Below are positions 21,732 through 57,617 of a DNA stretch of 64,000 nucleotides, in pieces. The notes beneath the pieces were generated by a model that saw only the letters and a list, made by a program, of their open reading frames with translations, searched no databases and was not told the DNA's origin. The translations under genes were made by a program, and so were the position numbers. The DNA is from an uncultured Candidatus Saccharibacteria bacterium (GTDB lineage: Bacteria; Patescibacteriota; Minisyncoccia; Phycocordibacterales; UBA9973): positions 34,339 through 98,338 of the forward strand of contig CAZQSY010000002.1 of NCBI GenBank assembly GCA_964596395.1. Direction: 5' to 3'. Numbering within the stretch: the first letter of the stretch is position 1; every line of letters starts with the position of its first letter.

Positions 21732-23435
21732 TTACAAAAACTCCCCTTGATAACATTTTTCGCAGTAAACAATCTCCGGTCTGTCGGGTGAAAAAGCGGT
21801 ATTTATTTCCGCCTGGCACTTGGCGCATCTTCTCCTCCACAATTTTGGCGGATTCAAGCGGGCAAACCGGGCGTTCTCCCGGCATTTCGGACATTCGCGA
21901 GGCGCGGGAAGCCCTAGTTTCCGCAATAGGTCAAGCTCGCCTTTGGTAACCTTGTACCCCCTCTTGCAGTTGGCGCACTCTATAACCTCGTTCAAAATAC
22001 CATCCTTCGTTTGTTCAATCGTGTTAGGCAACGAACCGGCCCCCATTGTTGTCTTGTAAACCGGCTCTGGCCGGTCATCCCAAGCGTACCCTCCGGCAAG
22101 CGCTTCTTCTTTAGTTTTTGGTAAAAAACGCATGGCGTTTGATTTGTTGTAGGCGAACCTGGAAAATTCCAGCGGGAAAAATTCTCCGTAATAAAATTCC
22201 CGGCCAAGCTTATCTGTATACGGATTTTTCTTCATATCTTCAATAATTTGCGCTTTCAATTTTTCATATTCTTCTTTCGAATATTGCTTGTTTAAAATGC
22301 AGTATGATTTTCTCTTTAAATTCACACAGCCGAAATTATTTTTCCCGGCGATGTTCCAAATGCAATACTGCAAATTTAAGCAGTCCGGAAAACAATAAGA
22401 GGAAAACATGACATTATTAACATTTTCCCCAACATGCACGCTCTCGTAAACTAGCGTCGCATTATTGCCCCAAACAGAATAATCAAAACAATCTTTCGCT
22501 GGCGGCACAGTCACAAATTGCGTCCATTTGCAATTTTCTACACTGTCGCATAAATAAACATTTTTTGAATTCTTAGAGGTAAACACGTATTCGCCGGTAA
22601 CATCCAGGTTAAGGGTATGCCCTGTATATACCCGGTACGGCTTGGTAAGCCATAAATCAAAGGCCTGTTTTTTAAATTTCTCAAGTCCTGCAAAAGATTT
22701 TAAATTCAATTCCTCCAACTTTTGGAAATACTCTTCTTTGGTGTATTTGATATTAAAAATACAGTAGGATTCTCCGCGAAGATTCACACAACCGACACAG
22801 TTTCTACAATTGAAACAACTTCTTGAAAACCAAACATCCACGCATGATTCGCATCTCTCCGAAAAAAACGTGCGATAACACTTATACAAACCGAATGACC
22901 CGTAACATAGTTCCGAATCCCGTACACTTAAACAATCCATACTGTACTTAACTCCATTCAACATGGAAGAGTAAAAAACGTTTTCGCAAAAATCTGCCCC
23001 AATAACCATATAACAATCTTTGCACCATGCAACGCCGCTTGTGTAAGTTGAATTTTTGAGGCTTGTGTACAAACTTTCCACCCCGACGTATGGAGTTTTT
23101 AAAGAAAGCTCCTTTACCTGATCAAAAAAAGGCCTCGAAGGGTCGTACTCGGTAGCATACTCGGTGCCATCCCACGAATCACCCCACCAACATTTCGGAC
23201 AGTAAACCGCTACTTTATCTTCGGGGGAATACATGGATAAAGTTTTTTCTCCGCACAAGTTACATGTACGCCAAAAGAGATAATACATATTCGCGAAAGA
23301 AAATCGTCGATACATCCGGCACTCTGGGCACCACGTCGGCGGCGGGACATTCATTTTTTGGTAGAAAGAAAAATCCTCAGATTCAATTACGAATTCTTTT
23401 TTACAGTTCTGGCAAATCTTAGTTTCGTTTTCCAT
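21732..23435 (-). CDS. cysteine-rich protein, paralog A (567 aa) with N- and C-terminal CxxC...CPxCR zinc-ribbon domains and a Cys-ladder core
   Basis: about 50 Cys; N-terminus KICQNCKK..FYQKMNVPPPTWCPECR..RTCNLCG..YCPKCWW; C-terminus CANCKR..PAPRECPKCR..RRCAKCQ..YCEKCY; internal CxxCxxCxxCVNL...YCI.N..Y.KEEY repeats. Confidence 0.8.
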   Translation of the reverse strand: MENETKICQNCKKEFVIESEDFSFYQKMNVPPPTWCPECRMYRRFSFANMYYLFWRTCNLCGEKTLSMYSPEDKVAVYCPKCWWGDSWDGTEYATEYDPSRPFFDQVKELSLKTPYVGVESLYTSLKNSTYTSGVAWCKDCYMVIGADFCENVFYSSMLNGVKYSMDCLSVRDSELCYGSFGLYKCYRTFFSERCESCVDVWFSRSCFNCRNCVGCVNLRGESYCIFNIKYTKEEYFQKLEELNLKSFAGLEKFKKQAFDLWLTKPYRVYTGHTLNLDVTGEYVFTSKNSKNVYLCDSVENCKWTQFVTVPPAKDCFDYSVWGNNATLVYESVHVGENVNNVMFSSYCFPDCLNLQYCIWNIAGKNNFGCVNLKRKSYCILNKQYSKEEYEKLKAQIIEDMKKNPYTDKLGREFYYGEFFPLEFSRFAYNKSNAMRFLPKTKEEALAGGYAWDDRPEPVYKTTMGAGSLPNTIEQTKDGILNEVIECANCKRGYKVTKGELDLLRKLGLPAPRECPKCRENARFARLNPPKLWRRRCAKCQAEINTAFSPDRPEIVYCEKCYQGEFL

Positions 23436-23436
23436 T

Positions 23437-25107
23437 TTAATAAATTTCCTGCTGGTAGCACCTCTCGCAATAGATTATATCAGGCAAATCTGGAGAATAC
23501 GCCGTTTCAAATTCATTCTGACACCCCTCTTTCATGCATTTTCGATGCCAAAGTTTGTTTGGCCCGCGATTTTTCATTCTTCTTTCATTTCTGCAATCAG
23601 GGCACAGCCTGGGCAACGGAATGCTTAATTTTTTATAAAAAAGAAACTCATTCTGAATGATGCGGTAATTTTTTGAACAGGCGATACAAACAAAAACTTC
23701 CTTAGACGCGTCAAAACCAATATCTTCAATTCTCTCTGGGATTTCCTCCCACTTTTTTATTTCCTTGCCATAAGTGCCGCGGGCGGTGTCTTCCCATTTA
23801 AAACCTTGTGACAAAGCTTCCTCTTTCGTAAGCGGGAATTCCTCCATCGCGGTAGTTTCGTTGTAGCCGAAAAGCATCGCCTCTTTCGGGAAAAATTCGC
23901 CGTATATTCCTTCATTTTTTAGGCCGGTAATAATTTCCTCCCTAATTTTTTCATATTCATCTTTGCTATATTGCTTGTTCAAAATACAATAATTCCCCTT
24001 CTTCAGAGCCATACAGCCGAAAAGATTTTGTCCATTCGGGCAGTTAAAGGAATATTCCGCAAAATTTGAACCCCAGCAATTGTGGCAGCAAATGCAATTA
24101 GACGCCTGAATGCCGGTATTGGTTGAATTGTAAATTCTCTCGGCGGTGCGCCCGGCCGTGTGGCAATCCACGCAGTCCCGCGCTTCGCGCCATACATGAG
24201 ACGAGTAAGCGCAATCCTCGGCATCGTAGGAATGGAAGCAGGAGCGATTATTTTTTACATTCACTTCATAATTACCCGTCGAGTTCGTAGACATGTAAAT
24301 CTCGGCATATTTTCTGGGAAATTTTTGAGCGAACTTTTTAAATTCTTTTCTGAAATTTTCCACTCCTTCGTAAGTATCCAGCTTGTAGTTTTTCAGCTTT
24401 TCTGCGTATTCTTCTTTATTGTATTCAACATTCCAAATGCAGTTGGATTTATTGCGCAAATTGACGCAACCCAGACAATTCACACACCCGCGGCAATTTA
24501 AAAGAAAGGAACTGTCGGTACAGCTATAACAGCTTTTGCAATATTTTAGACCGTAGGAATCATGGCAATCATCCGCCTCGTAAGAAAGCTCTACCTGGTG
24601 GGTGTAAGAGACGTCCACACAATCCTTGGTCTTCTGAATCCAATAACAGTGAACGCAATTCTCGTTGTTGGAAGACTCCACTATCATGTAGCAATTCCGG
24701 CAGTCGGCCACGTAATTCACGTACTGGCAGTCAACATTCCGCATGCCGACCAGCGCCGGCTTTGGAACTTTTTTGTAAAGTTCTCCAACTTGTTCAAAGA
24801 AGGGCTTGCTTTTGTCGTAAGAAAATCCGAATGACATCGGGTCCCACTGGTCGCTCCACCAGCACGGCACGCAATACACTGGCGTTTCTTTATTCGGCGA
24901 CCATATGGTAATCATGCTCTCTCCGCACAGGTCGCAATTCCGCTTGTAAAAATTCCTCTCGTTGCGGAAGATATGCCTTAACTGCGCCCGGCAATCCGGG
25001 CACAAGCGGGGTGCCTGCACGCCCATTTTTTCGTAATACTTAAAATCCTCCAAACCAATCGAAAAATCATTCTGGCAATTTTTACATTTTCTCGTTTCGT
25101 ATGTCAT
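23437..25107 (-). CDS. cysteine-rich protein, paralog B (556 aa)
   Basis: same architecture as paralog A; 1-bp gap from A. Confidence 0.8.
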   Translation of the reverse strand: MTYETRKCKNCQNDFSIGLEDFKYYEKMGVQAPRLCPDCRAQLRHIFRNERNFYKRNCDLCGESMITIWSPNKETPVYCVPCWWSDQWDPMSFGFSYDKSKPFFEQVGELYKKVPKPALVGMRNVDCQYVNYVADCRNCYMIVESSNNENCVHCYWIQKTKDCVDVSYTHQVELSYEADDCHDSYGLKYCKSCYSCTDSSFLLNCRGCVNCLGCVNLRNKSNCIWNVEYNKEEYAEKLKNYKLDTYEGVENFRKEFKKFAQKFPRKYAEIYMSTNSTGNYEVNVKNNRSCFHSYDAEDCAYSSHVWREARDCVDCHTAGRTAERIYNSTNTGIQASNCICCHNCWGSNFAEYSFNCPNGQNLFGCMALKKGNYCILNKQYSKDEYEKIREEIITGLKNEGIYGEFFPKEAMLFGYNETTAMEEFPLTKEEALSQGFKWEDTARGTYGKEIKKWEEIPERIEDIGFDASKEVFVCIACSKNYRIIQNEFLFYKKLSIPLPRLCPDCRNERRMKNRGPNKLWHRKCMKEGCQNEFETAYSPDLPDIIYCERCYQQEIY

Positions 25108-25160
25108 TTTTCATTTGTCAATAAACCTTGCGATAGCAGAAAATATTGACATTTGTATCT

Positions 25161-26906
25161 TTAATAAACTTCTTTCTGATAACATTCCTTACAGAAAATT
25201 TTCTCTGGTCTCTCGGGAGCATACATCGTTTCAAATTTATTTTGACACTTGTCTGCGTGGCCGTGATTTTTTAAATCGCACATGCATTCTCTTTGGTAAA
25301 AAGAAAACGGATTGGTCCATCTCAGCCTGTCGTAGTATCGGCAATTCGGGCATTTTCTCGGGAGAGGCAGGTTCATTTGCCGATAAAAAGAGAGCTCATC
25401 GGGCAGAATCCTAAAGGCGGAAACGCACAACGTTTTCGTATTCCCGTCGCCTGGACATTTTATGGTCTCTTCACAAATGTTATCCGATATATCTTCTATA
25501 CTATCAGGGATTTCTTCCGCACTTAATGTCGGCTCGTAATACTTCCTGTCTATATCTTTCCATTTGCTTCCAAAGGCCTTAATTTCTTCTTCAGAGATTC
25601 GCAATTCTTCATACGCTAAAGATTCATTGTACGCAAATGGAGAAAAAGCAGGTGGAAAATATTCTCCAAATCCGTATTTTTTCCCAGTAACATCAATATA
25701 AGGCGTCTCTTCCATGTGTCTTTTTATCTTCGCTACCAGCGCTTCATAATCCTCTTTCGTGTACTGCTTGTTCAAAACACAATATTGCTTTTTATCCAAG
25801 CCGACGCAGCCAAAACAATCCGCGCACCCTTTGCAATTGTCGCAATAAAACAAGTTCCGGCTTCCCCGGCCGCAGCTAAAACAAAAAATAACCCTGTTTC
25901 CTCCCCGACCGCTAATGACAGTTTCGTAGCATTCCTCAAGTTTACCCGGGAAAACAAGGTCTCGCGAATCTTTCACTACGTTTCCGCCGAGAAATATATC
26001 TTGGACGTTCTCCGAGTTAACCACAAAGTAGCACCGGCGCGCGGATTTGGAATTCTCTACAAAATCGCCGGAGGAATCTATGGAATTTTTTATGTTTGCA
26101 CAGCGGTGAACGGCCGACTTGTATACTTCAGCAAAAATTTCTTTGGCTTCGGTTTGTCCTGAAAAAATATTCAGCCTGAGCGCGGCCAGAGCATCCTTAT
26201 ACCCTTCTCGCGTAAGCTGTCTATTTTTAAAGACATAGCTTTTATTGCGAAGATTTGACGAGAGACAGCAATTTACGCAATTTGAACAATCAAACAAAAA
26301 ATGTGATTCAACGCATTGGTCAGAAGCAATCAAGAAAGAAGAATTATAGTTCTGGCTTGCCTTTACTAACTCGTATCCCCGATCATTATTTCTAAGTATT
26401 AAAGAATCAAGGCAGTTCTTGCTGTCAAAAACGAAACGCGAATATTTAACATTCTCAGACCGAAGAACACTGAAAGACAAGTAAACCTCTTTGCTGGTAT
26501 AACAATAATTTGCATATTCGCAACCGGCGCCGTTCCTTTCGTTCTGGTCCATGGCTCGATGCGGAACTTTTTCCTTAAGTTCGCGGAATTGCAAGAAAAA
26601 ATTTTTTGAGAAATCGTATTCTCTGCCGTAATCTCTGCCGTCCCAATCGTCGCCGAGGTGGCATTTCACGCACCATATGGCAAACGGGGATTCTGGCGCG
26701 TACATTGAAACTACGGGTTTGCCGCACTTTCCGCAGTTTCTCTTGTAAAGCGAACGCTCATTTACAAAACACATCTTGCGCAAGAATCGGCAGCGCGGGC
26801 ACCAGGTCGGCGGTGGGACGCCCATTTTTTGGTAAAAAGAAAAATCTTCCGGCTCAATCGTGAAGTCTTTTTTACAGTTTACGCAGATTTTTGTTTCGGC
26901 CTGCAC
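25161..26906 (-). CDS. cysteine-rich protein, paralog C (581 aa)
   Basis: same architecture; first CxxC of the C-terminal ribbon is degenerate. Confidence 0.8.
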   Translation of the reverse strand: MQAETKICVNCKKDFTIEPEDFSFYQKMGVPPPTWCPRCRFLRKMCFVNERSLYKRNCGKCGKPVVSMYAPESPFAIWCVKCHLGDDWDGRDYGREYDFSKNFFLQFRELKEKVPHRAMDQNERNGAGCEYANYCYTSKEVYLSFSVLRSENVKYSRFVFDSKNCLDSLILRNNDRGYELVKASQNYNSSFLIASDQCVESHFLFDCSNCVNCCLSSNLRNKSYVFKNRQLTREGYKDALAALRLNIFSGQTEAKEIFAEVYKSAVHRCANIKNSIDSSGDFVENSKSARRCYFVVNSENVQDIFLGGNVVKDSRDLVFPGKLEECYETVISGRGGNRVIFCFSCGRGSRNLFYCDNCKGCADCFGCVGLDKKQYCVLNKQYTKEDYEALVAKIKRHMEETPYIDVTGKKYGFGEYFPPAFSPFAYNESLAYEELRISEEEIKAFGSKWKDIDRKYYEPTLSAEEIPDSIEDISDNICEETIKCPGDGNTKTLCVSAFRILPDELSFYRQMNLPLPRKCPNCRYYDRLRWTNPFSFYQRECMCDLKNHGHADKCQNKFETMYAPERPEKIFCKECYQKEVY

Positions 26907-26910
26907 CTAT

Positions 26911-27744
26911 TTATTTTAACACCCTTTCGAATTCTTCCGGCAACGGCGATTTAACTTTTACCGTTTCGCCTTTTAAGTTTTTAAATTCAATGGAAAGCGC
27001 GTGGAGCATCATGCGGCCCTCTTCCCCGCGGGGATTATACAATTTATCCCCGACAATCGGATGATTGATGAATTTCATGTGCGCGCGAATCTGGTGCGTC
27101 CGGCCGGTCTTAGGGGAAATTTCTAGATAAGTAAAAACGCCCTCACCCCCTTTACTCCCCCCTCTCCAAAAAATTTTTTTGGAGAGGGGGCTAGGAGGTG
27201 AGGATTCCCCCGCCCTAACAAGGGAGGGGGTAAGGGGGAGGGTTACTCTTTTCAAGACCTTGTACTCGGTAACTGCCTCGCGCATTTCCCCGCGCGCGCC
27301 GCGCCCCGCCAGGCGCCGGCGGAAATCCCGCGGGCTCCGGCCGATCGGTTTATCTATTATGTCGTGGTCTTTCTTTATCAAGCCTTCAACTATTGCTACA
27401 TAAATCTTTTTTACCCTGTTTTGCTTGTCCGCCAACCCGCGCTTAGCAATTTCGAGCGCGGAGGCGGAAAACTGACTCTTCAAAAACTCGTGTGCCTTTT
27501 TATTTTTCGCCAAAAGTAAGACGCCCGAGGTTTCTCTATCTAACCGGTGCACCACCCCCGGTCTTTTTATTTCTTTCCCTTCCACAAAAATCGGCTCGCC
27601 GACATCTTTCGCTTCCGGATATTTTTTCAAAAACCAGTCGGAAATTGTCTCTTCCCCGCTTTTCCCATCAGGATGAACAGCCACACCCGAGGGTTTATCA
27701 ATCGCTAGAATATCCGAGTCTTCATAGAGGATTTTTATCTTCAT
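26911..27744 (-). CDS. rluD: RluA-family 23S rRNA pseudouridine synthase (RluD-like) carrying an in-frame insertion
   Basis: AIDKPSGVAVHP, HRLDRETSGVLLLAK, TGRTHQIRAH motifs; a Pro/Gly/Ser-rich loop of about 35 aa is encoded by a palindromic GC-rich segment. Confidence 0.9.
   Translation of the reverse strand: MKIKILYEDSDILAIDKPSGVAVHPDGKSGEETISDWFLKKYPEAKDVGEPIFVEGKEIKRPGVVHRLDRETSGVLLLAKNKKAHEFLKSQFSASALEIAKRGLADKQNRVKKIYVAIVEGLIKKDHDIIDKPIGRSPRDFRRRLAGRGARGEMREAVTEYKVLKRVTLPLTPSLVRAGESSPPSPLSKKIFWRGGSKGGEGVFTYLEISPKTGRTHQIRAHMKFINHPIVGDKLYNPRGEEGRMMLHALSIEFKNLKGETVKVKSPLPEEFERVLK
27136..27245. repeat. GC-rich palindromic (hairpin-forming) element inserted in-frame in rluD
   Basis: CCTCACCCCCTTTACTCCCCCCTCTCCAAAAAATTTTTTGGAGAGGGGGCTAGGAGGTGAGG is an imperfect palindrome, followed by CCCCCGCCCTAACAAGGGAGGGGGTAAGGGGGAGGG. 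Confidence 0.7.
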
Positions 27745-42333: not shown

Positions 42334-42378
42334 ATAAAAACCCTCCCTGTTTCGGGGAGGGTTTTTTATTTTTTAATA
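42334..42378. terminator. bidirectional intrinsic terminator
   Basis: AAAAACCCTCCCtgtttcGGGGAGGGTTTTTTATTTTTT. Confidence 0.8.
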
Positions 42379-42834: not shown

Positions 42835-43425
42835 GTGTATAATACCGGCATGATAGGAAGCATCAGGGGCAAAATCACCTGGAAAGACGAAAAATCGGCT
42901 GTAGTAGAAGCCGGGGGAGTCGGCTACAACGTAAACCTGCCCGAGAGCACCGCCGGCGGACTTGAAAAAGACGGGGAGGTGTTCCTTTGGGTGCATACTC
43001 ATGTGCGCGAAGATATGCTTGATTTGTATGGTTTCGCTGAGAGAGAAGAATTGGCATTTTTTGAAATGCTCCTCGGTGTGCCCGGGGTCGGGCCAAAAGG
43101 GGCACTGAATGTATTGAATATCGCGCCGGTAAAGACCCTGAAGAGAGCGGTGAGTTCGGGAGACCTCGCGTACTTGACCAAGATATCGGGGATAGGAAAG
43201 AAAACGGCGGAAAAAATAATCTTGGAACTGCGCGACAAAGTCGCGGACGGCGAAGACAAAAAAGAAACCAGCGCGGGAATGCGCGAGGAAATCGACGCGC
43301 TGGAAGCGCTCAAATCGCTCGGCTATTCGCAGCAGGAAGCGAGAGACGCGCTGAAAAAGACAAACAGCCCGGATACAAACGCGAAAGTGCGCGAGGCACT
43401 GAAAGTTTTAAATAATCATGCCTGA
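42835..43425 (+). CDS. ruvA: Holliday junction DNA helicase RuvA
   Basis: MIGSIRGKI...VGY.V N-terminus, HhH region, C-terminal domain. Confidence 0.9.
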   Translation: MYNTGMIGSIRGKITWKDEKSAVVEAGGVGYNVNLPESTAGGLEKDGEVFLWVHTHVREDMLDLYGFAEREELAFFEMLLGVPGVGPKGALNVLNIAPVKTLKRAVSSGDLAYLTKISGIGKKTAEKIILELRDKVADGEDKKETSAGMREEIDALEALKSLGYSQQEARDALKKTNSPDTNAKVREALKVLNNHA

Positions 43426-44362
43426 ACTCCCGGAAGTTGAAACTACAGTCAGAGGTTTGCAAGAAACCATCGCGGGGTTCCGCATCAAAGACGTTTGGAC
43501 GGACCTCAAAACCAAAGATAAAAGAAAAAAAGACACCGTCGCCGACCCGAAGTATTTCAAACTGTTCAGAAAAGAAATCATGGGCAAGAAGATTCTCTCG
43601 GCGGAAAGGCGAGCTAAAAATGTCCTGATAAATCTGTCGGCAAACAAAACCATCCTCGTACATATGAAGATGACGGGGCACCTGCTGTACGGAAAATACA
43701 AACTCAACCCCTCCCCGACCCTCCCCTTATCAAGGAGAGGGAGGAGGGTGGGGTCTTGGGCACCTGTAGGAAAAGATAGCCCTCTCAGCGACCCGTTCAA
43801 TCGTTTCGTGCATGTTGTGTTCACGCTCTCAAACGGCAAACATTTGGCCTTTTCTGACGCCAGGAAATTCGGAAAAATAACCCTGCTCGATACCAAAACC
43901 GCGCATGATACAAAACACCTGTACGGCATCGGCCCGGAACCATTGGACAAAAATTTTAAGCTGGAGGATTTTACACAGAGGTTAAGCGCATGCAAAAACA
44001 AAAAAATAAAAACCTCGCTGACCGACCAAAGCGTAATTGCCGGCATCGGAAATATTTATTCTGACGAAATTCTCTGGCGCGCTAACGTGCATCCAGAAAG
44101 AAAAGCGGGCTCGCTAAAAAATAAAGAGTTGTCGCTCATATTCAAAGCGATGAAAAAGACCCTCGCCAAAGGAATTAATTTCGGCGGGGATTCTATGTCT
44201 GATTATCGAAACATCCACGGCCTGCCGGGCAAATTTCAGCTGCACCACGAGGCCTATCGGCGCAAGGGAGAAAGATGCAGAAAGGAGAGTTGTAAAGGAA
44301 TAATTTTAAGAAAAGTAATAAACGGCCGTAGCGCGCACTTCTGCTCGGTACACCAGAAGTGA
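43418..44362 (+). CDS. mutM: formamidopyrimidine-DNA glycosylase (Fpg/MutM) with an in-frame insertion
   Basis: MPELPEVE N-terminus, C-terminal zinc finger; about 25 extra aa (NPSPTLPLSRRGRRVGSWAPVGKD) encoded by a GC-rich palindromic segment. Confidence 0.9.
   Translation: MPELPEVETTVRGLQETIAGFRIKDVWTDLKTKDKRKKDTVADPKYFKLFRKEIMGKKILSAERRAKNVLINLSANKTILVHMKMTGHLLYGKYKLNPSPTLPLSRRGRRVGSWAPVGKDSPLSDPFNRFVHVVFTLSNGKHLAFSDARKFGKITLLDTKTAHDTKHLYGIGPEPLDKNFKLEDFTQRLSACKNKKIKTSLTDQSVIAGIGNIYSDEILWRANVHPERKAGSLKNKELSLIFKAMKKTLAKGINFGGDSMSDYRNIHGLPGKFQLHHEAYRRKGERCRKESCKGIILRKVINGRSAHFCSVHQK
43700..43760. repeat. GC-rich palindromic element inserted in-frame in fpg
   Basis: CCCCTCCCCGACCCTCCCCTTATCAAGGAGAGGGAGGAGGGTGGGGTC. 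Confidence 0.7.
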
Positions 44363-44465
44363 AAAACAAATTTTGGAGGGGTTTGCCGAGCGGCGGCGAG
44401 GCAACTTCAGGAATTTTTAAGTTTCAAAAATTCCGTACCGGAAAAATTTTGTTTTTCACTTCTGG
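44351..44465. repeat. structured repeat: 24-bp perfect inverted repeat enclosing the conserved 63-nt core (copy 2); the arms are the last codons of the convergent genes fpg and trmH-like
   Basis: ACCAGAAGTGAAAAACAAATTTT ... core GGGGTTTGCCGAGCGGCGGCGAGGCAACTTCAGGAATTTTTAAGTTTCAAAAATTCCGTACC ... AAAATTTTGTTTTTCACTTCTGGT. Confidence 0.7.
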
Positions 44466-44941
44466 TATAAAACCCTAAACAAAACGACTCCAAGAGCCAC
44501 AGAAACATTCAGGGATTCCTTTCGCCCGCGCATCGGGATTTCGGCGATTATGTCGCATTTTTTTAAAATATTTTTCGGTATGCCTGTCACTTCGGCGCCA
44601 ACAACAAAAACGTTCCGGTCTCTTATTTTTACTTTTTTATAATCTATGGACTGTTTGTGTTGCTCAACACCAATAATCAAACTTCCCTCTTTTTTAAGCT
44701 TAGTTAACAGAGAAGTGATATTCTTCTTTTGTTCCCAAGGCACAAACTCTTCGGCCCCCAACGCGGATTTGGCTAGGTCCTTTCTCTTCCGGCCAAAACG
44801 GTCAGTGGGCGCGGGCGTGTATCCTGTGAGGTAAATTTTATTTATTCCCGCCGCGTCGGCCGTGCGAAACATCGCGCCGACGTTAAGAACGCTGCGCACA
44901 TTGTGTATTATTAAAACATTAGAAAAGTTTTCCTTGGACAT
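44456..44941 (-). CDS. SpoU/TrmH-family RNA 2'-O-methyltransferase
   Basis: 161 aa; SPOUT-fold glycine-rich motifs (NVGAMFRTADAAG, IIGVEQ). Confidence 0.75.
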   Translation of the reverse strand: MSKENFSNVLIIHNVRSVLNVGAMFRTADAAGINKIYLTGYTPAPTDRFGRKRKDLAKSALGAEEFVPWEQKKNITSLLTKLKKEGSLIIGVEQHKQSIDYKKVKIRDRNVFVVGAEVTGIPKNILKKCDIIAEIPMRGRKESLNVSVALGVVLFRVLYQK

Positions 44942-45564: not shown

Positions 45565-46845
45565 CTATTTTATGAAGTTTTTGCCCCGTGCCTTTTTGTG
45601 GTAGGCGATCGCGAAGCGATGCGCCTCGCTGTTAGCCAATAAAATCTCTTTTTTATACTTCTCTGCCAATTTCCTGTCGCCTAAAATTTCTTTTGGCTGA
45701 TGTCTCTCGTCTTTCAGAACCGAAACTACATCAATATCCAGGTTGAATTTTGATATTACTCCACGCGCGGCATTTAACTGGGCGGTCCCGCCGTCCGTAA
45801 CCATCAAGTCAGGAAATTTCCACTCTGCGTGCGCAAAACGGCGCGAAAGAACTTCCGCGAGCGCGCCGGTGTCGTTAGAATTTTCTTGCGTTCTTATCTT
45901 GAATTTCCTGTATTCATTTTTCGCAACTTCCCCTTCTTCTACGACAACCATAACCCCGACCATGCTTTTACCGTTCATGTGAGCGATATCGTAGGCCTCT
46001 ATCCTCTTAATTCCGGCTCGAGTGCTTCCGGACTCACCACGAAAATTTTCTGCTAAAAATTTTCTCTGTCCGTCGCCGTCGCTCCTACCAAGGGTTCGCT
46101 CGTAAGCACCCGAGCCTCTATTATTAAGTAGAGCCACATCGTTTATGTGCCTCAAAGAGAATATCTGTTTTTTTATTTCCCCTGCCCGCTCGAAATCTTG
46201 GGCCTTGGCTGATTTTTTCATTTGCTTCTCAAGGTTCTCGAGAACTTTTTTCTTTTTGCCTTCAAAAAACAAAACCAAGTTTTTTAAATTTTCTTTGTAT
46301 ACTTTTATGCCGTCAGGAAAAGAAACATCGGGCACCAGACCTATTTGTCTGTAAAACGTGTAAACATTCAGAGATTTTGCGTCAAGGAAAGGAAATACCG
46401 GCCGAATAATTTTAAGCGCCAGTCTAAGGTCTCCCCCGCTGGGATACGGCCCGAAAACTTTTTTGAATGCGTGGTGCCTGATGTCTTTTCCCCGTACAAC
46501 TAAAACTTGGGGAATTTTTTCCGAGGTTATGCCGACATGATTAAAGCTGGTGTCTGATTTTTCTTTTGTATTGTATTTGGGCTGGTGTTTTTTTATGAGT
46601 TCCGCTTCAAGAATTAGCGCTTCGAGCACGCTGTCGGTCTTCTGCCAAGAAATCTTGTCTGCCTTTGAAATTAAATCAACTAAAATCGGTCCGCGGGTTT
46701 CTATCAAATCTTTGCCGAAATAACTTTTAATTCTGTCTTTGAGAGATGTGGCCTTGCCTACGTATAAAATTTCTTTTCCCTTCTTGAAAAAGTACACGCC
46801 CGGCGTGTCTGGAATTTTCAATTTCTTGAATTCCTCTGATTTCAT
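45565..46845 (-). CDS. uvrC: excinuclease ABC subunit C (short form, 426 aa)
   Basis: N-terminal GIY-YIG (GVYFFKKGKEILYVGKA...E) plus RNase-H-like endonuclease domain; no C-terminal HhH. Confidence 0.8.
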   Translation of the reverse strand: MKSEEFKKLKIPDTPGVYFFKKGKEILYVGKATSLKDRIKSYFGKDLIETRGPILVDLISKADKISWQKTDSVLEALILEAELIKKHQPKYNTKEKSDTSFNHVGITSEKIPQVLVVRGKDIRHHAFKKVFGPYPSGGDLRLALKIIRPVFPFLDAKSLNVYTFYRQIGLVPDVSFPDGIKVYKENLKNLVLFFEGKKKKVLENLEKQMKKSAKAQDFERAGEIKKQIFSLRHINDVALLNNRGSGAYERTLGRSDGDGQRKFLAENFRGESGSTRAGIKRIEAYDIAHMNGKSMVGVMVVVEEGEVAKNEYRKFKIRTQENSNDTGALAEVLSRRFAHAEWKFPDLMVTDGGTAQLNAARGVISKFNLDIDVVSVLKDERHQPKEILGDRKLAEKYKKEILLANSEAHRFAIAYHKKARGKNFIK

Positions 46846-49490
46846 TTTTTCAAGACCCTTTTTAGGTATTTCCCAGTATAACTCTTCGCGTTGCTCGCCA
46901 CATTTTCCGGCGTACCTTTTGCTACCAAGTTGCCGCCGGCTACTCCCCCCTCCGGCCCAAAATCAATTACGCTGTCGGCGTTTTTTACGACGTCCAGATT
47001 GTGTTCTATCAGCACCACTGTATTCCCTTTTGAAACAAGCTGATTCAAAACCTCAAGCAGTTTGGCAACATCGTCGTAATGAAGCCCCACGGTGGGCTCG
47101 TCTAAGAGATAAATTGTTTTTTCGTAATGCGGCCGGAAGAGTTCACTCGAGATTTTTACCCGCTGCGCTTCGCCGCCCGAGAGTGTGGTGGCTGGCTGGC
47201 CGAGCTCTAGATACCCGAGCCCCACCCCCATTAGAGTAGAAAGCCGGTCGTAAATGGCTGGAATATCTTTAAAGAAAACAAGCCCTTCTTCGACGGTCAT
47301 TTTTAAAACCTCGTAAATGTTTTTCTTTTTATATTTTACGGTCAAGGTCTCTTTGTCAAAGCGCTTACCTAAACACACGTCGCAGGTTACGTACACCGTG
47401 GGCAAGAAATGCATTTCTACCGCGATTTCGCCGTTGCCCTCGCAAGCCTCGCAGCGCCCGCCTTTTACGTTAAAAGAAAAGCGGTTTGCCTTCCATCCGC
47501 GCACGCGAGCGTCTTCGGTCGTTGCGAATAAATCCCTGATATGTGTAAAGGCGCCGGTATAGGTCGCCAAATTCGAGCGCGGCGTGCGACCGATGGGCGA
47601 CTGGTCGATTAAGACCACACGGGATAAATATTCGGCGCCGGAAAAAGATGAGCAGTTAAAAACTTCATTCGAACGATACCTTCTCTCGTAGCGGGCTTGC
47701 AAATTTTTGTACAGAATCTCGTACATGAAAGAACTCTTACCCGAGCCGGATACACCCGTAATCACGTTCATTACCCCCAGAGGCACTTCGACATTCAGAT
47801 TTTTGATATTGAAAACCTTCCCGCCGGCAATGCGCAGCGCGCCTTTGCCCTCGCGCCGTTTTTTGGGAACTGGGATTTTTGTTTCTCCGCGCAGGTACGA
47901 AAGAGTCCTAGAGCCACTTTGGTTCTTTTTGGCTGTTAATAATTCATCCAACCAGCCAGATGCGACGATTTTTCCCCCATGTACTCCGGCTTGGGGGCCA
48001 ATATCCACAATATAATCAGAGGCGTAAATAGTATCTTCGTCGTGCTCTACCACCAAAATAGTGTTGCCCAAATCGCGGAGGTCTTTCAGTGTTTTTATCA
48101 GCCGGTCGTTATCTCGCTGGTGAAGCCCAATAGTCGGTTCATCAAGTACGTACAAAGCGCCCACTAAGCGCGAACCGAGCTGCGAAGCCAGCCGTATGCG
48201 CTGGGCCTCGCCACCGGATAAGGTGTTGGCCTTGCGGGAAAGCTGCAGATAATCCAAGCCGACATCGAGCATGAATTTGAGCCGGGCTTCTATCTCGCGC
48301 GTGACCGGCAGAGAAATTTCCTTTTCTTGTTCAGAAAGTTTCAAAGTCCTGAAAAACTCTGCCGCATCTTTTATGGAAAGCGAAGAAAGCTCCAAAATAT
48401 TTTTTCTTTCTTCGCCGGAGTTTACAAAAACATGCAGGGCCTCTCGGCGAAGCCGAGCACCAAGGCATACCTCGCACGGCTCTTCGCCCATGTAATGTTT
48501 CGTGCCCAGACCGTTGCATTCGGGGCACGCGCCGTACGGGGAATTGAAAGAAAAAAGCCGCGGCTCGACTTCGGGAAAAGAAAAACCGTCGTTCTTGCAG
48601 GCGAATTTTGCAGAAAGCAGAAATTCAGAATCCACACCCCCTCCTTTTTCCTCCCCCTTATTAAGGGGGAGGCCGGGTGGGGGTTCTATTTTAACCGTTA
48701 CCAAACCGTCAGACTCCAAAAGCGCTCTCTCCAGCGCTTCGGCCAACCTCGCCCGGCTTTCTTCCTTGTTATCAAAAAATTCATGCGCGGAAAATTTATC
48801 TATCAATATATCTATGTCGTGCGCCTTGTTTTTGGAAAGAACAATCTGCTCCCGCAGTTTTTTAATATTCCCGTCTACGCGAACTTCCGAAAAACCTTTG
48901 CCGAGCAAGTCATACAAAAGCTGGTAATACTCCCCTTTTCGCCCACGCACTACCGGAGAAAAAATCAGAACTTTGGTTGTGTCAAAGGGCACCTTTGACA
49001 CTTTCCCACTCTTTGCTTTATTTAGATTTTTTATCTTCTCCAGAACAAAATTCAAAATCTCTTCATTAGAGAGTTTCTTGATTTCCTCGCCACACAGAGG
49101 ACAGTGCGGGTGGCCGATGCGCGCGTACATCACGCGCAGATAGTCGTAAATCTCGGTAATAGTGGCTACCGTGGAACGAGGATTGTTCGAGCGCGATTTT
49201 TGGTCAATTGAAATAGCCGGCGAAAGCCCGGAAATCTCATCAACGTCGGGCTTGGGCATTTGGTTTAAAAACTGCCGCGCGTACGAAGAAAGCGATTCAA
49301 CGTACCGCCTCTGCCCTTCGGCAAAAATCGTGTCAAAAGCAAGCGACGACTTACCACTCCCCGAAACGCCGGTAATCACCACCATACTATTGCGCGGCAT
49401 TTCGACGTTTATATTCTTAAGGTTATGTGTCCTCGCGCCTTTAATCACTATCTTGCTTTCTTCTTTTGATTTTTCGTTTCCTTTTATCAT
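46842..49490 (-). CDS. uvrA: excinuclease ABC subunit A, with an in-frame insertion
   Basis: two ABC ATPase modules (GVSGSGKSS twice) and zinc fingers; inserted loop [17 protein letters not shown]. Confidence 0.95.
48635..48695. repeat. GC-rich palindromic element inserted in-frame in uvrA
   Basis: ACACCCCCTCCTTTTTCCTCCCCCTTATTAAGGGGGAGGCCGGGTGGGGGT; shares a CCCCTTAT(C/T)AAGG.G.GGGAGG core with the fpg and rluD elements. Confidence 0.7.
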
Positions 49491-55181: not shown

Positions 55182-57617
55182 CTACTTCACTTCCCCTAAA
55201 TTATCCCCCCGGCCGGAATGCACCACTAGGGGCACTTCGTTTTTTAAATGAAGGTATGAGCGGCCAAGAACGCCCTCCATCGCGTTTTTTATAATCTTCT
55301 CGGCCTCGGGCAAAATTTCTTCCCTGACTTCATAAACGAGCTCGTCGTGCACCTGCAGTATCAAGCGAGTTTCTGAAAGAAGTCCCGCTTTTTCAAGGTC
55401 CTCGTTCGCGAAACGAATCGCGAGTTTTATGATATCGGCCGTAGCCGTGCCCTGAATCGGCGCATTCACGGCTGTGCGCAAAACTTGCGCCTTGATGTAC
55501 GGAATTTTTGAATTTATGTTCGGAAAATATCGGCGACGGCCAAAGAGGGTTTCTGTATAGCGGTTCCGGGCAGCAAAAACCTCCACGCTTTTTAGATACT
55601 CGCTCAAGCCGGAAAATTGTCTGAAGTAATTGTCGTAAAATTTCTGCGCTTCTTCCCGGGTACCCCCTAAACTTTTGCGCAAAGAAGAAACGCCCATGCC
55701 ATAGATTATGCCGAAATTGATTACCTTGGCCTTGCGGCGCATTTCGGCATCGACTTTTTCTATCGGCACCCCGAAGACGAACGCCGCCACGCCCGCGTGC
55801 GCGTCTTTTCCCTCTTTGAAAATCTGCGTGAGTTTTTTGTCTTTGGAAAGCATGGCCGCCGCCCGAAGTTCAATCTGGCTGTAATCGAAAGCGAGCAGTT
55901 TGTATCCTTTTTCCGCCACGAAACCGCGCCTGATTCTTCTGCCCAGTTCGCTTTTTATCGGCAAATTCTGCAGATTTGGCTCCTGCGAAGAAAACCGACC
56001 AGTGGCCGCGCCGGCCTGCAAAAACTTGGCGTGCAGGCGGCCGTCCGGCCCCACCATCTTCGGTATCACGTCTATGTAAGTCGAAAGAAGTTTGGAGAGT
56101 TCCCGGTGCGAAAGAATCTCTTTGGCAATCGGATTTTCTTCGGCCAGTTCCTCTAAAACAGAAAAGCGGGTGGACAAGTTGCCGCTCGCGTTTTTTCTGC
56201 CCGATTTCAGGCCGAGCTTTTTGAAAAGCACTTCGGAAAGCTGTTTCGGCGAATTTATATTAAAAGGAGCGCCGGCCAGCTTGTATATCTTCCCGGTAAT
56301 TTTTTCGAGCTCAGTGTGATATTCGGCCGACAGCTCTCTGAAATATTTTTTGTCTATCAGGACCCCCGCTTCTTCCATCTTCGCCACGGCGGAAATTATC
56401 GGTTTTTCTATTTCCTCAAAAACTTTTTCCAGCTTTTTTTCCTTTAATTCTCTGAAAATTTTGTCGCGGGCTTCCTGAAAGGATTTGGTTTTGGCAAAAA
56501 ACAAAATATCCTGAAGGGAAGGATTTGATAAATCCGAATCGAGAAGCCAGAGGGCAATTGAGGTTTCACGCAATTCTCTGTCATCGGTCGCCGAGGTTGA
56601 ACCTCGGGACTCCCGAGGTTTAACCTCGGCAGCGTCGAAAAGACCTCCTTGGGCGGCCGTTTCTTCTTTCACCTCGTGTCCGTTCTTTTTAAAGAAGTCC
56701 TTCAGGCGGGAAACCAAGCTCCTAAATTCAAGTTCGGAAAAAACATTTTCTACTTTGCCGAAATCAGCCGTTTCCCAAAATGTTTTTTCAGGCAACTTAA
56801 AATCAACTGGCGCGTCGGTTCTAATTTTTGCCAATGTTTTTGAAAACACGGCTTCTTCTTTGTTGTCCTTTAAAAGTTTGATAATTCTTTCGGACAAACC
56901 GAGTTTTTCAAATTTTTCCTCAGAGTTTTTTGTGTTTAACTGCTTGTATATTTCCTCAATTGTACCGAATTCTTTGATAAGCCCGGACGCGGTCTTCTCG
57001 CCAATGCCTTTTATGCCGGGTATGTTGTCGGATGCATCCCCGCGCAGACCCTTGAAATCCGGAATTTGCGCCGGCTTAAAGCCGAACCTTTCTATAATCG
57101 CCCTCTCGTCGTAAAGCACGGTATCGGTAATTCCCTTCCGTAAGGTGTAAACCCGCACTCGCTCATCATCGACCAGCTGCATGGTATCCATGTCGCCGGA
57201 AGCGATTATTACATCAATATCTTTTTTGTTTTTACTATTTTTGATTTTCTCGGTGATGGTACCGAGCACGTCATCGGCTTCGAAGCCCGGCGCGTCGTAA
57301 ATCGGAATGCCGAATGCTTGGAATATTTGACGCGAATTTTTAAGCTGCGCCACCAGTTCGTCGTCGGCTTTTTTGCGGCCGGCTTTGTATGCTTCGTAGG
57401 CCTCGTGGCGAAAGGTTTTGCCGGGCAAGTCGTAGCAGGCAGCCATGTAGTCGGGCTTGAGCTCGGTAATTATTTTCATGAGCATCGTAGAAAGGCCGTA
57501 CAGCGCACCGGTCGGCTCACCTTTTGAAGAAGAGAAATCGGGCAGGGCGTGATAGGCGCGGTGGATTACCGCGTGGGCATCAAACAAAACCAATCTTTTT
57601 TTTCTCGCGCCGGGCAT
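55182..57617 (-). CDS. polA: DNA polymerase I (5'-3' exonuclease plus polymerase; no obvious proofreading domain)
   Basis: 811 aa; FEN-like N-terminus; motif A DYSQIELR, motif B RRKAKVINFGIIYG, motif C QVHDELV. Confidence 0.95.
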   Translation of the reverse strand: MPGARKKRLVLFDAHAVIHRAYHALPDFSSSKGEPTGALYGLSTMLMKIITELKPDYMAACYDLPGKTFRHEAYEAYKAGRKKADDELVAQLKNSRQIFQAFGIPIYDAPGFEADDVLGTITEKIKNSKNKKDIDVIIASGDMDTMQLVDDERVRVYTLRKGITDTVLYDERAIIERFGFKPAQIPDFKGLRGDASDNIPGIKGIGEKTASGLIKEFGTIEEIYKQLNTKNSEEKFEKLGLSERIIKLLKDNKEEAVFSKTLAKIRTDAPVDFKLPEKTFWETADFGKVENVFSELEFRSLVSRLKDFFKKNGHEVKEETAAQGGLFDAAEVKPRESRGSTSATDDRELRETSIALWLLDSDLSNPSLQDILFFAKTKSFQEARDKIFRELKEKKLEKVFEEIEKPIISAVAKMEEAGVLIDKKYFRELSAEYHTELEKITGKIYKLAGAPFNINSPKQLSEVLFKKLGLKSGRKNASGNLSTRFSVLEELAEENPIAKEILSHRELSKLLSTYIDVIPKMVGPDGRLHAKFLQAGAATGRFSSQEPNLQNLPIKSELGRRIRRGFVAEKGYKLLAFDYSQIELRAAAMLSKDKKLTQIFKEGKDAHAGVAAFVFGVPIEKVDAEMRRKAKVINFGIIYGMGVSSLRKSLGGTREEAQKFYDNYFRQFSGLSEYLKSVEVFAARNRYTETLFGRRRYFPNINSKIPYIKAQVLRTAVNAPIQGTATADIIKLAIRFANEDLEKAGLLSETRLILQVHDELVYEVREEILPEAEKIIKNAMEGVLGRSYLHLKNEVPLVVHSGRGDNLGEVK
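56591..56638. repeat. two tandem 17-bp perfect palindromes inside the polA linker, in-frame
   Basis: CCGAGGTTGAACCTCGG gactc CCGAGGTTTAACCTCGG encoding KPRESRGSTSA. Confidence 0.75.

Follow-up and report, generated by a model that had tools for sequence, protein, structure and literature searches.

The BoxC, PIT and triplex-motif (TM) repeats have been known since the 1990s, and where they come from has been a question for three decades. Patescibacteria, a major bacterial radiation, have genomes that are almost entirely coding. Here we describe three short, G/C-rich segments that lie in frame within the genes for an RluA-family pseudouridine synthase, Fpg/MutM and UvrA in a 64-kb stretch of an uncultured Candidatus Saccharibacteria contig (CAZQSY010000002.1; hereafter, the window); the source organism belongs to Patescibacteria/Paceibacterota. 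It is likely that these segments are G/C-rich repeats of the BoxC/PIT/TM class that are gained and lost inside Patescibacteria coding genes and kept there as tolerated loops. The TM class and its intergenic occurrence in E. coli are already known; what is new here is the presence of in-frame TM copies in housekeeping genes, and in Patescibacteria. An earlier note on this DNA knew of no description of such elements for this kind of genome, and our own literature search, of incomplete coverage, likewise found no publication that connects either BoxC or triplex motifs with copies in frame, or with Patescibacteria.

The closest described relatives are the intrastrand triplex motifs named TMECO by Holder et al. 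2015 (PMC4666352), which are the BoxC and PIT elements of earlier work by Hoyne, Maher and colleagues. In that paper, the triplex-motif class is known from E. coli, Enterobacter and cyanobacteria, with G/C-rich motifs abundant in Microcystis, Anabaena and Nostoc, and E. coli K-12 carries 23 TMECO copies (pattern CCCTCNCCC N3-6 GGGNGAGGG N3 GGGNGAGGG), all intergenic and some in inverted pairs. The elements described here share with BoxC/TMECO the succession of C-rich arm, loop, G-rich arm, a second loop of 2-5 nt and a second G-rich arm mirroring the first, as well as G/C-rich arms broken by one or two A/T positions, inverted 'palindromic' pairs, second loops of TTA-like and CCG types, local indels between close relatives, and no association with a transposase or mobile element. 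Some Patescibacteria copies are near-identical to the E. coli elements (GGAGAGGG-TTG-GGGTGAGGT); the reverse complement of an RluA insert from another patescibacterium (L002), CCCTCTCCTTTATAAGGAGAGGGTTGGGGTGAGGT, can be set against E. coli TMECO no. 2, CCCTCTCCCTTGAGGGAGAGGGTTAGGGTGAGGGT, although L002-type copies depart from the strict TMECO form in having a shortened arm and a longer loop. Unlike the intergenic E. coli copies, the three in the window are in frame in housekeeping genes, show the arm variants CCTCCCCC and CCCTCCCC, and belong to a group of hosts apparently outside the survey of Holder et al. (PMC4666352). A first loop of TTAYNAA is the usual one in this family. By sequence, the window elements can be classed as members of the triplex-motif structural class and as relatives of BoxC, not as BoxC sensu stricto.

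Three other kinds of repeat invite comparison. Rickettsia palindromic elements (RPEs), to which the earlier note likened the segments, are ~150 bp long, form ten families in Rickettsia and specify a peptide that is conserved (Ogata et al. 2000, related in PMC10969869). The analogy is apt for their way of persisting, as hairpin repeats in frame within unrelated conserved genes of a small genome, compatible with the fold of the host protein, RPEs being translated there as additional stretches of peptide (PMC10969869). It does not extend to membership: at 48-108 nt, built of 35-40 nt TM units, rich in G/C homopurine-homopyrimidine tracts and with a core that spans phyla, the elements here are set apart in size and construction from RPEs as these are described. 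Repetitive extragenic palindromic (REP) sequences and REPINs, which RAYT (Y1) transposases mobilize, are short imperfect palindromes, often in inverted pairs, that are non-autonomous and recognized as folded single strands (PMC3116915; PMC3733652); REPs lie outside genes and are marked at one of their ends by a GTAG or CGTC tag (PMC3733652). The window elements, in contrast, start with ACC, end with GGT, lack either tag, carry a mirror arm and are intragenic. They also differ from MITEs, small transposable elements with terminal inverted repeats flanked by a target-site duplication, in that a single hairpin with its mirror arm makes up the entire element, and no target-site duplication was seen at the five filled-versus-empty sites compared below. 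Small dispersed repeats and MITEs of cyanobacteria, reportedly described by Elhai et al. in 2008, are likewise very small repeats of Nostoc-type genomes, and many of the core matches below are in Nostoc, Rivularia and Microcoleus.

All three segments that the earlier note had pointed out in the window are present. The first lies in a gene at 26911-27744 (minus strand) that the note called rluD; its 277-aa product matches Pfam PF00849 (E = 1.3e-26), with PDB homologues aligning on both sides of the insert, and is better named an RluA-family synthase, as it is without the S4 domain of E. coli RluD. The second is in fpg/mutM (43418-44362, plus strand; 314 aa; Pfam PF01149 and PF06831, PDB MutM alignments) and the third in uvrA (46842-49490, minus strand; 882 aa; PDB UvrA E = 4e-298, Pfam UvrA_inter and ABC_tran). 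In the RluA gene the insert is a composite of two hairpins and three mirror arms, 108 nt long and encoding 36 aa (TLPLTPSLVRAGESSPPSPLSKKIFWRGGSKGGEGV), at 27136-27243 (minus strand). The fpg insert (NPSPTLPLSRRGRRVG) occupies 48 nt at 43706-43753 (plus strand), at the tip of a beta-hairpin extension, and the uvrA insert 54 nt at 48634-48687 (minus strand), where a peptide of ~17 aa is added to a hairpin turn of the UvrB-interaction domain. Each length is a multiple of 3 and each insert is free of stops, so the reading frame is kept, as had been claimed.

These loci stand out from the rest of the window. The three segments are 58-65% G+C in a window of 46% G+C, and a scan for G/C blocks (20-mers holding at least 13 C or at least 13 G) found a C-run followed within ~40 nt by a G-run solely at 27140-27245, 43702-43760 and 48637-48690. 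The shared core proposed in the earlier note, allowing up to 3 mismatches, has six matches in the window against 0.44 expected from shuffles; five of the six fall in the three loci and the sixth, at 42343-42360, lies within a terminator-like hairpin. When folded as single-stranded DNA (ViennaRNA, hairpins only, 200 shuffles per element), the RluA and uvrA elements are strongly stable (z = -4.8 and z = -4.0, with 0/200 shuffles equally stable), and mismatches in the stem of the fpg copy make its hairpin weaker (z = -0.8). The description of all three as imperfect palindromes leaves out the mirror arm that extends beyond the palindrome. Rfam matches in the window were tRNAs alone, and in five other loci the elements had no Rfam match. 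We also weighed splicing, by an intron, an intein or a similar element, and set it aside: the segments are much too short for this, they invariably keep the frame and contain no stop, and they match no RNA family.

A three-block TM finder (7-11 nt per arm, no more than one mismatch in each interaction, a first loop of 3-14 nt and a second of 1-8 nt) identified seven motifs in the window, three in the RluA insert and two each in fpg and uvrA, with none elsewhere in the window and none in 20 shuffles. In the RluA insert, one motif runs along the minus strand at 27141-27191 (GCCCCCTCTCC / loop / GGAGAGGGGGG / AGTAA / AGGGGGTGAGG); a second shares its hairpin on the opposite, plus strand at 27158-27203 (CCCCCTCTCC / A6T7 / GGAGAGGGGG / CTA / GGAGGTGAGG) and coincides with a perfect 16-nt inverted repeat (I14); and the remaining one, at 27207-27243 on the plus strand (CCCCCGCCCT / AACA / AGGGAGGGGG / TAA / GGGGGAGGGT), has a perfect mirror arm. 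The fpg motifs lie at 43706-43741 on the minus strand (CCCTCTCCTT / GAT / AAGGGGAGGG / TCG / GGGAGGGGTT) and at 43719-43754 on the plus strand (CCCTCCCCT / TATCA / AGGAGAGGG / AGGA / GGGTGGGGT, with one Watson-Crick and one third-strand mismatch). Those of uvrA are at 48635-48672 on the minus strand (CCTCCCCCTT / AAT / AAGGGGGAGG / AAAAA / GGAGGGGGTG) and, free of mismatches, at 48650-48685 on the plus strand (CCTCCCCCTT / ATT / AAGGGGGAGG / CCG / GGTGGGGGTT), where the second loop, CCG, is that of E. coli TMECO type B as given in PMC4666352. Every window locus thus has a TM on both strands, making it a 'palindromic TM'. At least one motif per locus (27207-27243, 43706-43741 and 48650-48685) stays within the loop and mismatch limits that Holder et al. 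2015 set for an intrastrand triplex motif of class II (purine motif) in their ITxF definition (three blocks, stems of 6-15 nt, at most one mismatch, loops of 1-6 nt); both RluA motifs that share the A6T7 loop exceed its 6-nt loop limit. The predicted third strand places G over G-C and A or T over A-T, which is the purine-motif triplex rule.

A hairpin-core query from which the flanks were excluded (CCYCYCCTTAYNAAGGRGRGG) was run on public genome and viral-contig collections. Among 200 hairpins fetched by this core, unselected for flanks, 149 have a perfect 7-nt mirror arm 0-8 nt away on one side; mirror-arm instances number 156, where permuting the flanks among hairpins yields 55 on average and 79 at most, and the counts are inflated by subfamilies of common descent. 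For the two asymmetric stems, the arm is a mirror copy in 106 instances and a direct copy in 11. Outside the query, the flanks carry a conserved, oriented extension, either ACCTCACCCC 5' of the hairpin or its reverse complement GGGGTGAGGT 3' of it. The stem CCTCTCC goes with the flank ACCTCACCC, CCCCTCC with ACCTCCCC or ACCACCCC, CCTCCCC with ACCCCACC and CCCCCCC with ACCCCCCC, so that all four stem classes follow the mirror rule, with weak statistics at that level. Since the flank changes with the stem, the G-rich flank can be read as the mirror image of the adjoining G-rich arm, with A or T facing A. A candidate role of the arm as Shine-Dalgarno/anti-Shine-Dalgarno mimicry (CCTCCTTA resembling the 16S rRNA 3' end) was set aside, the triplex architecture accounting better for the mirror arm.

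The same architecture explains what the elements encode. With a motif on both strands, either strand reads C-rich and then G-rich, and the peptides are therefore alike on either strand of the host gene, as the earlier note had observed. Its peptide labels were swapped, however: PLSRRGRRVG belongs to fpg, PLSKKIFWRGGSKGGEGV to the gene it called rluD, and the remaining 12-aa peptide to uvrA. Codons of C and T only specify Pro, Leu, Ser and Phe, those of G and A only specify Gly, Glu, Lys and Arg, and the loop TTAYNAA encodes Leu, Tyr, Ile, Asn or Lys. A stop codon is impossible in any frame of a pure-purine or pure-pyrimidine arm and possible in the loops only; of the 6 frames, 3-5 are open in TM units compared to 2.3-3.6 in random windows of equal length, a modest effect.

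Comparison with structures and orthologues supports the view that the three segments are insertions relative to most orthologues, placed in loops with the frame kept. In alignments with PDB entries, RluA has 37 residues facing 3 in 11wx (~34 extra), Fpg has 36 facing 7 in MutM, and UvrA shows a 14-residue gap where the UvrB-interaction domain of 9gxk has a turn of two residues; these gaps coincide exactly with the inserts. The AlphaFold model of the RluA protein (mean predicted local distance difference test score, pLDDT, of 81.5) assigns pLDDT <50 to residues 173-198, between strands 158-170 and 201-211, so that in this model the insert is at the tip of a beta-hairpin. Empty forms are found among orthologues, of which we compared the 120 best for each of RluA and UvrA. 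The UvrA stretch is just 5-9 residues long in 93 of 120, including the nearest one (86% identity). For Fpg, orthologues of 286 aa lack the whole hairpin and forms of 300 aa read KYKFNKNK-WTPDE, without an insert; NPSPTLPLSRGGRRVGS is present at the Fpg turn in about nine orthologues, including the closest relatives (70-76% identity). The RluA loop, between KVLKRF and FTYLE, has at most 8 residues in 36 of 120 orthologues and at least 15 in 77 of 120. The earlier statement that orthologues have no such loops holds only in part, as 77 of the 120 RluA orthologues carry some insert at this loop, drawn from several unrelated palindromic families.

These unrelated families can be seen at each of the three positions. 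One in the RluA loop reads GTGTGCACAAAATTTT...AAAATTTTGTGCACAC and encodes QNFFSCALPRVRGGTLGDKNF (L178 6896-7684, GCA_018823255.1); PSPRPDLKNSKRSGL and GIFKDGPWGNSLKNRPF occupy the Fpg loop; and the UvrA loop holds PARTTDAVQSGG and long RRSHSVLE...SEDSSE inserts. Elsewhere in UvrA, residues 330-331 of the window protein face residues 304-420 of the Thermotoga protein in 9gxk, ~115 residues fewer and apparently a missing insertion domain; the 120 closest UvrA orthologues are of similar length (859-925 aa).

The segments form one repeat family, as the earlier note proposed, and this family has further copies and is not particular to this lineage. We found the hairpin core in at least 120 stretches of species-representative genomes from many phyla, other Patescibacteria included. 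Among the matches listed are many from Nostoc, Rivularia and Microcoleus, and others from Nitrospirales, Thiomargarita and Acidobacteriota, as well as Bacteroidota, Ignavibacteria, Planctomycetota, Chlamydiota and Omnitrophica; Patescibacteria account for 14 of the listed stretches. By a crude long-ORF test of coding versus intergenic status, listed core matches fall inside long ORFs in 7 of 14 cases in Patescibacteria compared to 22 of 135 in other phyla. Adding two further motifs (in L003 and L180) to those seven gives nine Pfam-supported ORFs with in-frame copies in other Patescibacteria, encoding MgsA, a beta-CASP RNase, TsaE (in two genomes), FemAB, a prepilin peptidase, UvrC (in two genomes) and a class-I aminoacyl-tRNA synthetase. 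Intergenic copies exist too, as in L176, and a sequence near-identical to RluA inserts is present at an unrelated site in L121. The core also occurs in 51 stretches of contigs labelled viral (IMG/VR, L005-L055), which may be phages, as possible vectors, or misclassified cellular DNA; this is ~15-fold above a uniform-composition estimate, with three core matches in one 9.3-kb contig (L029). Some genomes carry the units in tandem: in a Thiomargarita sp. (L130 7128-7312) core matches lie 41 bp apart, with one 82-bp gap, giving CCCCTCCTTACCAAGGAGGGGTTGGGGGTGGTTAAGTTCCT, and an uncultured cyanobacterium (L126 2679-3002) has four copies 101 bp apart.

Gain and loss could be followed most closely in uvrA. 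A neighbor-joining tree of the 120 RluA orthologues was too star-like to tell one insertion from many, and the better-resolved UvrA identities, over 859 well-aligned columns, were used instead. Among the 120 best UvrA orthologues, the site after residue 269 holds an insert of the same family in the window protein and in P0252, P0253 and P0333, and none of these four carriers is within the 13 closest relatives of any other. P0252 is filled, whereas its closest relatives, P0263 and P0284 (93% amino acid identity), are empty at this site. The uvrA genes of L180 (encoding P0252) and L181 (encoding P0263) are 80.6% identical in DNA sequence, and their nucleotide alignment places a 54-nt insert in L180 after ...AAAAT, the same place as in the window, with L181 empty. 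The first ~28 nt are common to the window and L180 inserts; in L180 the insert has a degenerate right half. Two further TM inserts in L180 uvrA (three in all) are missing from L181, as are one TM insert and one unrelated palindrome in uvrB, so that five in-frame inserts differ between the two genomes across uvrA and uvrB. One site in uvrB, with different lengths, and one in uvrC, longer in L181, are common to both. L180 has 6 TMs in 8.7 kb, every one inside uvrA, uvrB or uvrC. At the level of sequence comparison, these pairs demonstrate gain and loss of copies between close relatives. The empty sites are A-rich or purine-rich, five sites being too few for a motif test.

Members of the family also turn up at other positions of the same proteins: LPLTKGEEKGG, a uvrA-type peptide, is found at another RluA site in P0062, and a 15-aa insert peptide of this family at another UvrA site in P0297. 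Three RluA inserts of the TSPQPSPYKGEGV family, from three different contigs, are identical over their first 27 nt; their hosts are ~74% identical in conserved columns, which is the background level. On these alignments the element is more conserved than the RluA genes that host it.

How might such elements arise and persist? In the model that we favor, a pyrimidine arm and a purine arm would pair as a Watson-Crick hairpin and the second purine arm would lie against it as a third strand. Since the arm/mirror-arm relation is kept across subfamilies, propagation probably depends on recognition of the single strand in its folded state, the hairpin together with the third strand. The elements may spread as non-autonomous selfish DNA through a structure-dependent process acting on single strands or associated with replication and repair; by analogy with hairpin recognition by REP/RAYT and IS200/IS605 systems, single-stranded DNA exposed at replication or repair would be the most plausible setting. 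Selection would then keep those copies that are a multiple of 3, stop-free and at surface sites that tolerate them, beta-hairpin tips for instance, and these would be translated as disordered Pro/Leu/Ser ... Lys/Arg-Gly-Glu loops, presumably largely neutral for the host proteins. Copies that break the frame or the fold would be purged, and with near-zero intergenic space the visible survivors would be in-frame loops. Gain and loss are seen directly, and from them we infer that the elements behave as selfish mobile DNA.

Several observations weigh against this model. The elements come without a transposase, terminal inverted repeats, a target-site duplication or any visible element-encoded protein, and their mobility is argued from presence and absence alone. 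The window has three loci only, ~70% alike, which bears on copy number and recent activity. In metagenome contigs, the empty and the filled allele of the window uvrA site both gave 0 matches; as the filled-allele control also gave none, the window species is not in that collection and the negative is uninformative. An old insertion that was later lost many times would equally account for recurrence at one site, and the mirror arms could covary in part because a small number of subfamilies gave rise to them, rather than through selection for a triplex. Triplex formation itself was seen for TMECO (CD/NMR) only when the oligonucleotides were single-stranded, and neither in duplex DNA nor in vivo, according to PMC4666352, and the strict TMECO regular expression has 0 matches in the window and 1 (L038) across all loci.

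It is conceivable, if rather improbable, that the palindromes were instead built in place, with fragile A/T- or purine-rich codons at hairpin tips acquiring them through template switching or templated insertion during repair of breaks or stalled forks, and with their likeness a matter of convergence. That several unrelated palindromic families occupy the same RluA, Fpg and UvrA loops fits such an origin, and the lack of a target-site duplication or transposase and the non-TM palindrome in frame in polA (see below) point the same way, as does the link drawn by Holder et al. (PMC4666352) between TMs and between-strain local rearrangements, instability, slippage and error-prone repair. Template switching, however, yields inverted repeats and not mirror repeats. 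The inserts are also unlike their flanks, and convergence sits poorly with the 27-nt identity of three RluA inserts on three contigs, the near-identical sequence at the unrelated L121 site, and the same 28-nt start in the window and L180 uvrA. We give somewhat less weight still to a function at the DNA or RNA level for which the host would keep the elements, be it a pause in replication or transcription, a hot spot of recombination as a source of variation, or an mRNA hairpin by which translation is slowed from one folding unit to the next. Conservation of the element sequence exceeds that of flanking synonymous sites, its position between beta-strands recurs, and Holder et al. speculated on a role in adaptive plasticity (PMC4666352), all of which would suit a function; close relatives nevertheless live without the inserts, different families and lengths replace each other at the same site, copies are decaying (the z = -0.8 of fpg, the degenerate right half of the L180 insert), and earlier BoxC/PIT work is reported, in PMC4666352, to have found no promoter, terminator or polymerase-blocking effect in vivo.

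A purely protein-level explanation, in which the segments are ancestral loops under selection, for example as flexible Pro/Gly linkers, and the symmetry of their DNA is incidental, appears very unlikely to us. The inserts do lie on the protein surface, and the closest Fpg relatives (70-76% identity) have the same loop. Against this, the hairpin and mirror symmetry resides in the DNA and not in the protein, the same DNA motif is found in intergenic regions and in other phyla, presence and absence differ between proteins that are 93% identical, and AlphaFold predicts the insert with low confidence. Hardly credible is an artefact of assembly or binning through chimeric joins at low-complexity G/C runs. 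The window does derive from a metagenome-assembled genome, and runs resembling G/C homopolymers are error-prone, but a separate Logan contig record (L001) has an identical RluA protein with the same motifs, dozens of assemblies made independently (JGI, ENA, NCBI, Logan) contain homologous inserts in frame, and the reading frames are intact.

A bolder version of the repeat model, which we regard as speculative and probably too strong, holds that TM repeats are a phylum-spanning, structure-defined form of mobile DNA without a transposase of its own that inserts repeatedly at the same codon positions in Patescibacteria, namely beta-hairpin tips encoded by A-rich or purine-rich tracts. If this were true, it would imply a targeting mechanism, such as third-strand or hairpin-guided integration at stalled forks, and the repeats would steadily supply essential proteins with new surface loops.

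Whichever route the elements take, surviving Patescibacteria copies are pinned to alignments of conserved proteins, in which gains, losses, boundaries and the recurrence of sites can be read base by base. The five inserts that differ between L180 and L181 in two genes provide filled and empty pairs at base resolution, making the origin of the repeats directly testable. If the repeats are as we propose, selfish DNA inside coding genes would not be unique to Rickettsia, and the phenomenon would extend to one of the major bacterial radiations. Where Patescibacteria orthologues differ in length, the difference may in many cases be a loop derived from a repeat, which would matter for annotation, for the alignment-based phylogeny of Patescibacteria and for structure prediction.

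The window and its relatives hold some other features near these loci. A near-perfect 41-nt palindrome, GCCGAGGTTGAACCTCGGGA C TCCCGAGGTTTAACCTCGGC, lies at 56590-56630 within the ORF at 55182-57617 (minus strand; DNA fold z = -7.9). It is in frame in polA (peptide AEVKPRESRGSTSA), between the 5'-3' exonuclease and polymerase domains of DNA polymerase I, and, being no TM, seems to be a second type of palindromic insert kept in frame in the window genome. Downstream in fpg, a 26-nt inverted repeat (44349-44374 and 44444-44469, 92% complementary, 69 nt apart), A/T-rich and also non-TM, flanks the brief stretch that separates the end of fpg from the convergent ORF that follows. In the interval from the RluA gene to rplS lie two or three large ORFs (556-587 aa; window 21732-26906, L002 10743-16382, L177 6117-9665) whose order is conserved in several Patescibacteria; none has a Pfam family above the curated cut-off, and two of the three in the window have only weak treble-clef zinc-finger matches. 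Pairs of bAvd and reverse-transcriptase (RVT_1) genes are typical of diversity-generating retroelements, and two such pairs are found within 18 kb of the RluA gene on a JGI Patescibacteria contig (L003 1-1146 and 15071-16437).

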